Part shown: piece by piece, positions 10,682 to 14,673 of the stretch
How positions within the stretch are numbered: the first letter of the stretch is position 1
Layout of the letters: the number at the start of each line of letters is the position of its first letter
Assembly (NCBI GenBank): GCA_965216125.1
Contig: OZ244152.1
Coordinates: 4,427,947 to 4,491,946 of the forward strand
From: Candidatus Multivorans sp.
GTDB taxonomy: Bacteria > Acidobacteriota > Thermoanaerobaculia > Multivoradales > Multivoraceae
Length of the DNA: 64,000 bases
Direction: 5' to 3'
Translations under genes and position numbers: made by a program
Notes under the pieces: model-generated
What the model was told of the DNA's origin: nothing
The model's database searches: none
Seen by the model: the letters and a program-made list of their open reading frames with translations, nothing else

Positions 10682-12163
10682 ATGGAAACGCCGGATTCCG
10701 GGGGTGACACCCCCGCCCTTGCCCTTACTTTCGACGATGTCCTCCTGGCCCCCGGCCTGTCGGAGGTGCATCCTAACGAAGTCAGCCTCGGCACCCGCGT
10801 CACGCGTGGGATCGCGCTGAACATTCCGCTGATCTCGGCCGCGATGGACACCGTGACCGAGGCCGAGTTGGCGATCGCCCTGGCCCAGGAAGGTGGCATC
10901 GGGGTGATCCACAAGAACCTGTCGGTCGACGCCCAGGCCACGGAAGTCGACCGGGTCAAGCGCTCCGAGGCGGGCATGATCGTCAACCCGATCACCATCC
11001 GGCCCGAACGGCGCATCCGCGAGGCGCTCGACCTGATGGCCCGCTACAAGATCTCCGGGGTCCCCGTCACCGACCGCGAGGGCCACCTGGTCGGCATCCT
11101 GACCAACCGCGATCTGCGCTTCGAAACGGATACGAACCTGCCGGTATCCGAACTGATGACGCGACAGAACCTGGTCACGGTTCCGGAAGGAACGACCCTG
11201 GAACAGGCCAAGGCTCAACTTCACCGCCACCGGATCGAGAAACTGCTCGTCGTGGACGACGACGGCAACCTGAAGGGTCTGATCACGGTCAAGGACATCC
11301 AGAAGATGATGCAGTACCCGATCGCCTGCAAGGACGACCTCGGTCGCCTGCGGGTGGCGGCGGCGGTCGGCACCGGCGGCGACTACCTGGAGCGGGCGCG
11401 CGCGCTGGCGGCGGCCCAGGCCGATGTGCTCGTGGTGGACTCCTCCCACGCCCACAGCCGCGGCGTGCTCACTGCTGTGGCTCGGATCCGCGAGGCGCTG
11501 CCCGACGCCCAGCTCCTGGTCGGCAACGTGGCGAGCGCCGAAGGCGCGCGGGCGCTCGCGGAACGCGGCGCGGACGGGATCAAGGTCGGCATCGGACCGG
11601 GCAGCATCTGCACCACCCGCGTCGTCACCGGCGCCGGAATGCCCCAGGTGACGGCAATCCGCGACGCCGCCCGTGTGGTCGGAGACCTGCCCATCGTCGC
11701 CGACGGCGGTATCCGCTTCTCGGGCGACCTGACCAAGGCGCTGGCCTGCGGCGCCCACAGCGTGATGGTCGGCTCCCTGCTCGCCGGCACCCAGGAAAGC
11801 CCCGGCGAAACGATCCTCTATCAGGGCCGCAGCTACAAGGCCTACCGCGGCATGGGGTCCCTGTCCGCGATGGCCGAAGGCAGCGCCGATCGGTACTTCC
11901 AGTCCGATGACCAGCCGCTCTCGAAGCTGGTGCCGGAGGGCATCGAGGGGATGGTGCCGCACAAGGGCAGCGTCCACCAGGTGATCGCCCAACTGACCGG
12001 CGGCCTGCGCTCCGGCATGGGGCTATCCGGCTGCGCCAGTGTCGCTGAACTGCGAACGCGCGCCCGCATGGTCCGGGTCACCGCCGCCGGTCAGAAGGAA
12101 GGCCACGCGCACGACGTGGTGATCACGAAGGAGTCGCCCAACTATTGGGTCGACCGAAGCTGA
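10682..12163 (+). CDS. guaB: IMP dehydrogenase. The start is ATG at 10682; the ORF track start at 10598 is probably too early.
   Basis: FDDVLL, catalytic loop [11 protein letters not shown], tandem CBS pair. Confidence 0.95.
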
Positions 12164-14174
12164 CCAGAGGCGTAGAACCCGGATACAGCGGCCGACGGCG
12201 AGCGGACCCGCCGGGAGCAGCAGGATGACTCGCCGCGAGCAGGTAGGCCACCCGTTGTTCGCGGCCGTACACGCCCGTCATCTCGGCCTCCAGTCCGTAA
12301 CGAATGTCGTCACCGGCATGCCGGCCTACCGTGATCCAGCGATGAACACTCCGTTCCCAGTCGGGGAACGCATCCGACGACGACGCGCGGAATCGGCGTC
12401 TGACCTGGACCAGGGGCGCCAGCGGAGTCGGCTCGATGAACGCAACATCCTCGGTGGCCACAACGTCCACACGGTCGAGCGCCCGAAACTCGAGTTCGAC
12501 CTGTCTGGTGAACCCGGTGAGCGCGTGGTCGTCGAAGACAGCCCAGGGCTCGGACTCGGTCCAGCCGGACCAGGTCAGGTTGGCTTCGCCGTCCGGCGCC
12601 GCCTCGCGGTACGACCGCCGCACGACAGCCAGAGCCTGCGTCGGCGCCTCCGGCTTGCGCGTCCACGCGCCGCCCAACTCAACGCCCACCGGCGTCTGAG
12701 GCGCCTGCGCACCTGCAGCCTGCGCCATGTACGCGTAGTCGCGCGGTACGCCGCCGCCCCCGAAGCCCGGCATCGCATCTACCGGCGCACTCGCCTCCGA
12801 ACGGTTGCCGCTACGGTCCACGTGACGCACCCAGTAGCGCCGCGCCGCCGGAGAGTCCGTCCGACGCTCGTGCTGCGTGCCCCGTGTCGAGCCCACCAGG
12901 TTCCTCGGCCGGGGCGCCGGCGACGACGGCGCGCCCTCGTACACCTCCGTGTACGCGTAGTCCGTCTCCAGCGGCTGAGGCCAACTCAATCGCACAGCAC
13001 CCGGAACCGACGAAGCGATCAGTCCCGAGGCCGTCTCCGGCTCACCGGTGTCCCCCGCAACCATGTGAGACCTCACCGCTGACCACGCCGACTCCACACC
13101 CTCGTGAGACACCGAACGGGCACGGATCTCGTACGTCGCGCCGACCCGCACAGGCTCCAGCAACACCGGCCAACCCCGCGTCACCTCCTCGCGCGCGTCC
13201 AGCCAGTGGCCACGACTGCTCTGCCTACGCCACTGCACCTTCGTCTTCACGATCAACGAGTAGTCCGACGGCGGTTCGAGCTCCACCCGGATCCGAGGCG
13301 CCACCGTACCGTCCGCACCAGGATCAGACTGCTCCGACACCGACCGGAACGACGGCGCCGGAGGCGTCCACGGCGCCGGAGGCGCCAAGACCAGTTCCGG
13401 CATCCAAAAGCTGTCGCCGAACGTAGCCGCCGACTGCTCCACCAGATCCAGATCCACCGTATCCACGTCCGCACTCGAGGTGGAGCGCTTGGACCGCGTG
13501 ACCGCGCTGGCGCTCGAAGACAACGTCACCCCGGACACAAGAAGCAGCGCACCAGAGAAACCGGCGCCCGCGTCCGTCACCGTCACCTGATCGCCTGGAC
13601 GAAGCGACAACCACGAACCGTTGTCGCCGACCGCCAAACGGTACCGGTACACCGCCAATGCCTTCGAGGCCCGCAACGCCGCGCGCAGAAGACGGGACGC
13701 CGCCGTCGGCGAACCCAGAAACGCCGCCTCGCCCAGGTCCCGCCCGGGCGCCGCATCCGACGACGGCGACGAGGCCGCGACCGTCAGACTGAAGCCTTCC
13801 CCGGCGTGAACGCGGGAACTCGTAAGCGACAGACGCGCCGAACCGATCCGCTCCTCCACCGGCGCCGGAGGCGCGGGCGACGTACCCGGACGCACGTCAC
13901 GGTGAGGTGAACCACCGAGCGTCTGGTACTCGATCACGTTCCCCCACGACTGCCACATGCCGGCACCGCCAAGAACCTGCTCCACCCGCCACACCGTCGG
14001 CAGCTCCGGCGTCGGAGACAGGGCGCTCCTCGACCATGACGTGTCCACCGGCGGAAACTCGTTCCCCGCCGGCGACGGCGGCGGCGCAGGCGGCATCGCC
14101 CCATCGTCTTCCGCGTCGCTGGGAGGAGCGTCGTCCGTTGCCGTCCAGGCAAAACGGATCGTCTCCTCAGGCAA
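12123..14174 (-). CDS. FN3-repeat protein resembling phage tail / host-specificity (gpJ-like) proteins. Orphan gene with uncertain start; the frame is open to 14403 without an ATG.
   Basis: 683-codon ORF far beyond chance length at this GC. FN3-like segments: [20 protein letters not shown] and [23 protein letters not shown]3 about 74 % versus about 94 % in secA. Overlaps the guaB 3' end by 41 nt. Confidence 0.5.
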
Positions 14175-14652
14175 CCCGATCTCGATCCGCTGGCCGCTCC
14201 GGTCGTGATCACGAACTGAGCCGGGTACGAAGCTTCGCCCTCCGACTCCGACCGATCGAAACCGTCGTCGAACTGAAAACGCAACGGACGCTCCCGACGA
14301 CGACTCCCCAAGACCGACAGGTCCAGACTGCCGCCAAGAGGAACTACGAGGTGCCTCGTCGACCGGTGGGGGCCGCGCCCGGCCGATGCCGGACCGCCAT
14401 CTTCAAGCCCGAACAGGTCGCCTCAACGCTTCTATCCGAGGCCTGAAGCCCCGCCGCACATAGCGAATCGCATCGGCCCCGCCGGTCGCGAGGGTCGACA
14501 ACCGACAGTCTCCTCAGCCGCACTCATTGACGGCTCGCAGCAGATCGTCTGTCAACCACCGCGCGGTAGGTCCACCGCGCCCAGGTCCCCTGCACAACGT
14601 TCCTGTTTCGGGGCGACAGCTTCAATGCCTACACTGACCCCATGAGCGGCAG

Positions 14653-14673
14653 GGCCCGCTCGGCGCGCGGGCC
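14653..14673 (-). terminator. Hairpin GGCCCGC-N7-GCGGGCC immediately after the pepP-like stop
   Basis: Reverse-strand transcript UAGGCCCGCGCGCCGAGCGGGCC; no U-tract. Confidence 0.3.

Follow-up and report, generated by a model that had tools for sequence, protein, structure and literature searches.

The window analysed here, a stretch of 64,000 nucleotides from Candidatus Multivorans, contains genes encoding SecA, GuaB, an M24 peptidase, RibF and similar proteins. Between the stop codons of guaB and a pepP-like gene lies an inserted island, in which we recognized pieces of two genes on the minus strand, the larger of them represented by a 683-codon open reading frame (ORF). The features of the locus are as follows:

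10598..12163 (+), guaB, encoding IMP dehydrogenase, a conserved flank (Pfam IMPDH, E 6e-150)
12123..14174 (-), the 683-codon ORF under study, from TTG at 14174 to the stop codon at 12123-12125
12123..12163 (-), 3'-terminal 13 codons of this ORF with its stop codon, antisense to the conserved 3' end of guaB
12164..14672 (-), inserted island (2509 bp) with two decayed genes, bounded by the stop codons of guaB and pepP, which are convergent
12774..13391 (-), two tandem FN3-like domains (PHROG, PDB 9l9p_S, AF2 model, Foldseek)
13563..13781 (-), C-terminal half of Phage-tail_3, PF13550 (Pfam, alignment A1)
14207..14338 (-), N-terminal remnant of the gene (homologue residues 9-52), in another reading frame and with no start codon
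14337..14555 (-), decayed small HTH-like ORF (tblastn E 2e-16, 47-49 % identity)
14561..14580 (-), inverted repeat GCGCGGT-N6-ACCGCGC, shortly before the small HTH-like ORF
14657..14695 (no strand), hairpin across the pepP stop codon (inverted repeat I16; arms of 18 nt, loop of 3 nt)
14673..15899 (-), pepP-like gene of the M24 aminopeptidase P family, flanking and conserved (Pfam Peptidase_M24, E 5e-39)

The genes on both sides are well conserved, guaB sharing 88-95 % nucleotide identity with its counterparts in the orthologous loci L011 and L010, and the pepP-like gene sharing 93 % and 84 % amino acid identity with its orthologues P0153 and P0154. In blastn comparisons with these two loci, homology ends at 12163/12161 and 14670/14673. 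The gap between guaB and pepP is only 58 bp in the related genome represented by L011, which thus has an empty site, while L010, from a closer relative, carries a different insert of 7.1 kb with a DruE-like helicase at the same position. Horizontal acquisition, as proposed from the sequence alone, is therefore supported, since homology to two relatives ends precisely with the stop codons of guaB and pepP and the relatives have either 58 bp or another insert between them. In Candidatus Multivorans the pepP-guaB spacer is marked as a site of variable insertions, being empty in one genome and occupied by a DruE-like helicase in another and by phage debris here. The hairpin at its pepP side is likely to be the pepP terminator and to mark the edge of the island, the GC content of which (0.688) is close to the window mean (0.683).

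We found no further traces of a phage at this locus. Pfam domains of phage proteins, integrases and reverse transcriptases were absent from the roughly 33 window ORFs scanned, in agreement with the sequence-only reading, which had noted no other phage genes, no integrase and no diversity-generating retroelement (DGR) reverse transcriptase or template repeat. No tRNA was found in the window, a tblastn search recovered no relics of a tail module, and neither att sites nor flanking repeats were detected. The same lack of a reverse transcriptase domain among the scanned ORFs, together with the absence of a long direct repeat between 11500 and 16500, gives no indication of a DGR target. Synteny between the window locus and the loci L002-L004, which carry members of the same protein family, was likewise not observed.

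The extent of the ORF and its 41-nt overlap with convergent guaB were as originally described. The public annotation places the start of the same ORF at ATG 14096, which yields a protein of 657 aa (P0001). GC3 is the highest of the three codon positions, a pattern typical of genes; it is lower than in neighboring core genes, though the difference is smaller than the 74 % against 94 % first claimed (0.79 in the ORF vs 0.86-0.92 in neighboring genes). The AF2 model of the product has an overall pLDDT of 80, with values of 80-95 for residues about 80-600 and values below 50 for the last 54 residues, which are disordered. PADLOC returned no match for the ORF, and no Rfam families were found in 11900-14900. 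Two overlapping plus-strand ORFs, 12225-13082 and 13104-13910, were rejected as genes because their GC3 is below GC1, a non-coding pattern.

The ORF is a homologue of siphophage tail-tip hub proteins. Homologues of up to about 1190-1370 aa are encoded in Candidatus Multivorans genomes, the two matches considered having E-values of 4e-106 and 8e-74, and a family profile search recovered 1599 relatives. The family phrog_31, central tail fiber J, matches residues 337-542 of the 758 aa translation (E 7e-12), and PDB 9l9p_S from phage T1 matches the FN3 region of the family profile (E 3e-8). Although Pfam fn3 is silent on the ORF, its model shows beta-sandwich strands in this region, for which Foldseek reports FN3 pairs at E about 1e-8; the FN3-like repeats that had been noticed in the translation are thus real, and they occur as a tandem pair. 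P0003, a fuller homologue, matches phrog_5616 (E 2e-15), and its AF2 model (pLDDT 83) aligns over the full length with solved siphophage tail tips at E-values between 1e-21 and 3e-18, T5 pb3 being the best (7ZHJ, chain 7zhj_b, E 1e-21), together with lambda gpJ (8K35, chain 8k35_A, E 3e-19; 8IYK, chain 8iyk_F), T1 (9L9P, chain 9l9p_S) and DT57C (8HQZ); JBD30 and Chi were likewise matched along the whole length. The same siphophage tail tips lead the Foldseek ranking for the ORF itself, at E about 1e-10 and over only 400-520 columns. These matches confirm the earlier assignment to phage tail or host-specificity proteins.

Window family and solved tail tips have in common the tandem FN3 domains that follow the hub, whereas sequence identity between them is only 10-14 % and no solved fibre was matched to the C-terminal repeats of the family, W-x-(K/R)-x-P-x-A-P-T...P-x-V-W. 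Both proteins remain below the Phage-tail_3 gathering cut-off of 23 bits, P0003 with 22.2 bits (profile positions 16-150) and the ORF with 11.5 bits (E 0.27, positions 85-153 of 164), the latter because half of the domain has been deleted. Distant relatives (P0010 and P0011) are encoded in phage contigs after tape-measure genes; this tail-module position downstream of a tape-measure gene was seen for distant relatives only (L006 and L007), and L007 also has a distal-tail gene. Searching GenBank phages by tblastn gave no match for P0002 and only weak matches of the FN3 region to lambda-like J proteins for P0003, and no relatives emerged when IMG/VR and JGI metagenome contigs were scanned for patterns. 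Within the gpJ/pb3 tail-tip family, the proteins described here form an acidobacterial branch that has diverged strongly and is missed by Pfam.

Comparison with longer homologues shows that the window copy is truncated in several places. Against P0002, a homologue of 1189 aa, the ORF covers residues about 270-1010, tblastn placing P0002 residues 266-1022 in the ORF frame. Residues 9-52 of P0002 are matched in frame -1 at 68 % identity (E 7e-11) by the N-terminal remnant listed above, and alignment of the DNA with L003 reveals a deletion junction at 14207|14206, where codons about 53-269, encoding the hub domains, are gone and the reading frame changes. An apparent SVRD match just upstream of this junction was dismissed, as it arises from QFVI codons read in another frame and does not reflect homology. 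The start codon is also absent, as is the spacer that would separate the gene from the HTH-like ORF upstream. Within the ORF, an in-frame deletion at about 13870 has removed the N-terminal half of Phage-tail_3, about 107 residues (alignment A1). At the other end, amino acid homology to family members stops near 12207, equivalent to about residue 1010 of 1189 in P0002 or to residue 186 of a 520 aa C-terminal ORF in L002 which shows the part that is missing here, so that the last 190-330 residues of the homologues are absent. With its original C-terminal part and stop codon gone, the gene's frame runs on into antisense guaB. A weak tblastn match of the P0002 C-terminus at 32963-33130 was attributed to chance, being antisense of a Phd/PIN toxin-antitoxin pair.

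The 498 nt preceding the ORF were described by the sequence-only reading as a long non-coding leader of lower GC in which the frame stays open. The GC content is only slightly reduced (0.667 vs the window mean of 0.683); three in-frame stops, at 14622-14624, 14514-14516 and 14400-14402, interrupt the frame, which is open only from 14399; and the leader consists of two decayed gene fragments, namely the gene's own 5' end and the small HTH-like ORF. The latter contains an in-frame TGA and a scrambled stretch in the window, the stops being visible in the alignment, and all of the disabling lesions are clustered in 14207-14555. In L002 and L008 an intact small HTH-like ORF precedes the family genes. 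Comparison of these two copies gives a dN/dS of 0.34, and Pfam HTH_3 matches the L002 copy at E 0.005 only.

Selection on the family is relaxed but not neutral. Pairwise NG86 dN/dS values for all family pairs, which are family-wide and not branch-specific, range from 0.45 to 0.65, 3-6 times those of the neighboring genes (0.08-0.17 for pepP, guaB, ribF and secA). Relatives also show damaged copies at a locus marked by Wzy_C and GGDEF domains, where the gene is split in L002 (frameshift site 12546-12556), frameshifted and devoid of FN3 in L004 (site 11680-11709), and reduced to its C-terminal half in L009; the comparison genomes are low-coverage long-read MAGs, in which some of the frameshifts could be assembly errors, but the large deletions cannot. 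According to our simulation, 683 codons would stay open after 3-5 % neutral substitution with a probability of only about 5-15 %. Since an open frame of this length is improbable under neutrality, either the inactivation was recent or the truncated frame is still under selection.

Taken together, these observations point to a decayed remnant of a gpJ/pb3-type tail-tip gene within an insertion, that is, to ordinary prophage debris, a reading to which we assign a probability of roughly three in four. A siphophage-type tail-tip hub gene of the lambda gpJ, T5 pb3 or Phage-tail_3 type would have been inserted, along with a small gene for an HTH-like protein, between pepP and guaB in a Candidatus Multivorans-like acidobacterial chromosome; later deletions would have reduced the insert to 2.5 kb, and the ORF would be the longest fragment of the hub gene to persist. 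Most likely, the ORF is a pseudogene that was inactivated recently and has kept an open frame; initiation at an internal ATG or TTG would yield a chain of FN3 and beta domains ending in a disordered segment. Tail-tip function has probably been lost, since the copy has neither the N-terminal hub domains, which assemble into a trimeric cone that seals the tail tube, nor any of the partner tail genes; in comparison with solved tail tips, half of Phage-tail_3 and the distal C-terminus are missing as well, and no tail module surrounds the gene. Several properties are those of a pseudogene: longer intact homologues exist, pieces of the gene lie out of frame, its start and native stop codons are lost, and it is absent from this site in relatives. 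The open 683 codons, the confinement of the disabling lesions to 14207-14555, the gene-like GC content by codon position, the dN/dS of about 0.5 rather than 1 and the confident AF2 model speak against it.

Similar remnants are known from the cryptic prophages of E. coli K-12, which include lone tail-fibre pseudogenes. The resemblance extends to an isolated structural-gene fragment in a variable intergenic spot, truncations and frameshifts, relaxed constraint and an empty site in a relative, the difference being that only 2.5 kb are left here, with no detectable integrase, att repeat or tRNA. Among the fates suggested earlier for the ORF, that of a remnant is the one favored by these results. 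If this is correct, an apparently intact orphan ORF that was deposited as protein-coding is a truncated phage relic whose wrecked 5' end had been taken for a leader, and no new mechanism or system follows from it.

It is also conceivable, though in our view rather unlikely, that the truncated gene has been exapted and encodes a functional protein of about 660 aa with a role unrelated to tails, for example in binding or adhesion. Translation from ATG 14096 or TTG 14174 would produce a protein with one half of a hub domain, a pair of FN3 domains and a region of beta-rich repeats; the frame has remained open despite the stops and frameshifts in the upstream fragments, GC3 exceeds GC1 and GC2, the modelled core has high pLDDT, and the public annotation contains the CDS. 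However, the in-frame deletion takes away one half of a folded domain, the final 54 residues consist of junk or guaB antisense sequence, the gene is missing from this site in both related genomes, and the raised dN/dS of the family also argues against such a role. Judged by eye only, the N-terminus has no obvious signal peptide, and a scan for sigma-70-like promoters, which is weak evidence, found none. The domestication suggested at the outset has no positive evidence in its favor, the hub domains, start codon, half of Phage-tail_3 and C-terminal part having been lost. A component of a gene transfer agent (GTA), either a lone g15-type host-specificity protein or an adhesin, is very improbable. 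Phage-tail_3 is a Pfam family also carried by GTA g15 proteins, and the hub fold is common to both, P0003 matching chain 6tba_8A of the RcGTA virion at E 2e-9; yet this chain ranks only 12th, far below the siphophage tips, Pfam scans at E up to 1 detected no GTA TIM-barrel-like domain, the window ORFs scanned include no GTA head-tail cluster, and the host belongs to Acidobacteriota, not Alphaproteobacteria. These results, together with a broken gene that has lost its hub domains, dispose of the lone GTA-type adhesin proposed earlier. Finally, GC-rich genomes do yield long spurious ORFs, and several plus-strand shadow ORFs overlap the gene, but a chance ORF, an antisense shadow or an assembly artefact has almost no probability left: the homologues and the 1599 profile relatives, along with the gene-like GC3, exclude the first two, it is the overlapping plus-strand ORFs that show the non-coding pattern, and the island boundaries coincide exactly with the ends of conserved genes.

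The association of the two genes deserves a further comment. The small HTH-like ORF and the hub gene occur as a pair at two or three other chromosomal loci (the Wzy_C-GGDEF locus, L003 and L008, the last two of which may be one region), twice in L008, and always without the rest of the tail; a small HTH-like ORF upstream, as in these copies from sister genomes, is an unusual neighbor for a J-type gene. It is an improbable suggestion that the pair might form a conserved two-gene cassette which Candidatus Multivorans genomes retain and move among intergenic sites, with the window frame as a still-expressed, exapted FN3 protein and not debris. The inverted repeat just upstream of the small ORF is kept in L008 and nearly so in L002 (alignment A2), and could be a candidate operator or a hairpin.

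The flagged ORF lies between guaB and the M24 aminopeptidase gene pepP, and its coordinates bear out the 41-nt overlap with guaB reported by the sequence-only reading:

10598-12163, plus strand: guaB (Pfam IMPDH, E 6e-150), flanking the ORF
12123-14174, minus strand: tail-tip-like ORF with 683 codons, beginning at TTG 14174 and ending with the stop codon 12123-12125 (the public annotation, P0001, starts at ATG 14096 and gives 657 aa)
14673-15899, minus strand: pepP, on the other flank

Orthologues of the peptidase are encoded in two related genomes (P0153, 93 % aa identity, in the 4.45 Mb Candidatus Multivorans genome OZ250177.1; P0154, 84 %, in a 4.5 Mb genome), which have a common gene order of AMP-ligase, hydantoinase B, ACAD, MiaB-like, RibF, thioredoxin and pepP, followed by guaB, SecA, M23 and ChlI. 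At one of these loci (L011) only 58 bp separate pepP from guaB, leaving an empty site. The closest related genome (L010, the one whose pepP shows 93 % aa identity) has a 7.1 kb insert there (9234-16313), encoding a Druantia DruE-like helicase split into 564 and 833 aa ORFs (PADLOC DruE1, E 4e-62 and 1e-81) and an uncharacterized protein of 579 aa. Nucleotide homology of both loci to the window ends at 12161-12163 and 14670-14673. The empty site, the other cargo and these end-points show that 12164-14672 is an insertion in a variable spot, in agreement with the horizontal acquisition proposed earlier. Searches of the window and island found no tRNA, flanking repeat or integrase. Of the other window ORFs, about 33 were scanned; their Pfam matches, where there were any, were to metabolic or housekeeping families only. 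Using the tail-module proteins of two phage contigs (L006 and L007) and other neighbors of family genes as queries, tblastn turned up no additional phage relics. Within this scope the reported absence of other phage genes, an integrase and a DGR stands. A DGR target is not supported, as no reverse transcriptase occurred among the scanned ORFs and no long direct repeat in 11500-16500.

The GC content of the ORF at codon positions 1, 2 and 3 is 0.69, 0.60 and 0.79, compared with 0.41-0.52 (GC2) and 0.86-0.92 (GC3) in neighboring genes. The codon-usage anomaly is therefore real yet milder than the 74 % versus 94 % GC3 first claimed; taken as a whole, the insert has the same GC content (0.688) as the window on average (0.683).

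The protein has a sub-threshold match to Pfam Phage-tail_3 (E 0.27, covering the C-terminal half of the profile), and its FN3 region matches PHROG tail families, among them central tail fiber J (phrog_31, E 7e-12). A word-indexed search of 5.8 billion proteins recovered only three relatives: P0002 (1189 aa, 44 % identity), P0003 (851 aa, 39 % identity) and P0004 (a weak match). A family profile retrieved 1599 proteins at E <= 1e-3 from 1.84 billion representatives, and two of the more distant full-length relatives, P0010 and P0011, are encoded in phage contigs. A tape-measure gene precedes the family gene in both contigs, together with a large tail protein in L006 and with a distal-tail gene and a large protein lacking any PHROG match in L007. 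The AlphaFold2 model of P0003 (63-sequence alignment; pLDDT 83, pTM 0.70) matched siphophage tail tips over its full length, the best PDB matches being T5 pb3 (7zhj_b, E 1e-21), DT57C, lambda gpJ (8k35_A/8iyk_F), JBD30, T1 (9l9p_S) and Chi, yet identity to them is just 10-14 %. These matches identify the family as siphophage tail-tip hub or central-fibre proteins in a very divergent form. The model of the window protein, confident at residues about 80-600 and with pLDDT below 50 for the last 54, matched the same proteins by Foldseek over 400-520 columns only. An FN3-containing phage tail or host-specificity protein, as originally read, is thus supported by both PHROG and fold matches, and a chance ORF is ruled out by homology. 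The GTA-type adhesin considered in that reading is rejected because neither the domains, nor the gene context, nor the taxon fit; among the matches of the P0003 model, RcGTA virion chain 6tba_8A ranks lower (E 2e-9).

Alignment of homologues to the window by tblastn reveals extensive truncation. Residues 266-1022 of P0002 correspond to 14219-12129 in the ORF frame, and residues 9-52 to 14338-14207 in a different frame (68 % identity, E 7e-11), where the fragment has no start codon. The deletion junction 14207/14206 (CAGTTCGTGATC followed by ACGACCGG) fuses codon 52 of the gene at L003, the P0002 locus, to about codon 270 and shifts the reading frame. Codons about 53-269 are lost at this point, which sits in a 16-nt near-palindrome centred on TGATCA (14196-14221), which may be due to chance or tied to the origin of the deletion. 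A further ~107 residues, the N-terminal half of the Phage-tail_3 domain as modelled in P0003, are absent in frame, and everything past about P0002 residue 1010 is gone; at locus L002 the counterpart of this C-terminus is a 520 aa ORF, of which the window matches only the first 186 residues. The final 13 codons fall in DNA that shares 88-95 % identity with the guaB genes of relatives, and are antisense guaB rather than tail gene.

The ~500 bp leader, previously described as non-coding with the frame staying open, is neither simply non-coding nor open throughout: in-frame stops occur at 14622-14624, 14514-14516 and 14400-14402, and the leader comprises the N-terminal fragment at 14338-14207 and a decayed HTH-like ORF (14337-14555). 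The latter is homologous to a small ORF upstream of intact family genes at L002 (9529-9798) and L008 (9123-9419) (tblastn E 2e-16; 47-49 % aa and 70-72 % nt identity), which resembles XRE-type HTH proteins (weak Pfam HTH_3 match, E 0.005) and has a dN/dS of 0.34 between those two loci. In the window copy a TGA interrupts the frame and one stretch is scrambled, implying two frameshifts, and the 200-600 bp spacer that separates it from the tail gene elsewhere is deleted, start codon of the tail gene included. A conserved inverted repeat, GCGCGGT-N6-ACCGCGC (14561-14580), lies directly upstream of the small ORF, and a hairpin (14657-14695) spans the pepP stop.

Decay is seen elsewhere in the family. 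L002, L004 and L009 are one chromosomal locus (between Lon-Rho-DUF362-Wzy_C and GGDEF-RrnaAD-FtsK), with the gene in a different state in each:

L002: gene broken into two ORFs, of 851 and 520 aa
L004: frame changes at about 11680-11709, both FN3 domains absent
L009: C-terminal half only (745 aa), adjoining a decayed HTH-like ORF

P0002 at L003 is an intact ORF but has no first FN3 domain, and gene fragments lie upstream of it.

Pairwise NG86 dN/dS is 0.45-0.65 in every family pair (0.54 in the close pair L004-L009, dS 0.039), and 0.08-0.17 for pepP, guaB, ribF and secA at similar dS. The window copy, ~50-59 % identical to all others and at a different site, thus represents a separate lineage of the element.

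We conclude that the ORF is an ordinary, well-explained prophage relic that belongs to a divergent branch of a family already known; the remnant option of the sequence-only reading is borne out by the loss of the hub domains, start codon, half of Phage-tail_3 and C-terminus. Of the possible substitutions in its 683 open codons, 3.2 % yield a stop, and the simulated probability of the frame surviving is 0.15 at 3 % and 0.05 at 5 % random substitution. The open frame therefore reflects either recent inactivation or continued selection on the truncated frame. Recent inactivation is plausible because a sister genome at dS about 0.2 lacks the island. That the truncated ORF is expressed or exapted seems unlikely, as it has no obvious signal peptide (judged by eye), one domain is halved, the C-terminus is junk, partner genes are absent and relatives lack the gene at the pepP-guaB site.

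Several unrelated loci (L002, L008, L009 9728-9989 and the window) have the HTH-like ORF ahead of the tail-tip gene and on the same strand. The L002 and L008 copies are intact, with a GC3 of only 0.65, and those of L009 and the window have decayed; that this ORF and the hub gene form a maintained mobile two-gene cassette of Candidatus Multivorans is quite improbable. Upstream of P0002, a 90 bp piece (L003 10001-10090) encodes 30 residues identical to P0002 410-439, and a 222 aa ORF (L001 9250-9918) resembles part of the family C-terminal region; both are additional pieces belonging to a second copy. A Multivorans-like contig (L008 10001-21323) carries two tandem copies, the first divided by a gap into ORFs of 440 and 1294 aa, and the second beginning at 18897, with DUF2730, HTH_23, Phd antitoxin and Tle1-like genes nearby. 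A 167 aa ORF weakly matching tail protein phrog_2048 precedes this second copy and the L004 copy.

Two apparently secreted window proteins (61452-62882 and 63196-63987, both minus strand) have a common conserved Cys-containing C-terminal domain (ETLCLQ.SRY...FWFF..DNWE.LIKVL.GC..NG.VWV.GASTTDLG...PAPAITD..AFP.GC), also found in genes adjoining tail-tip relics (L001, 104 aa; L004, 176 aa and a 438 aa M12-like metalloprotease; L008, 442 and 91 aa). Finally, 32889-33604 (plus strand), which has metabolic genes on either side and lies where the coding signal is weaker, contains a Phd/YefM-like antitoxin ORF (32889-33173) followed by a PIN-like toxin ORF (MLFLDASALVKRY...), as judged from reading the translations and one tblastn match to Phd antitoxin.
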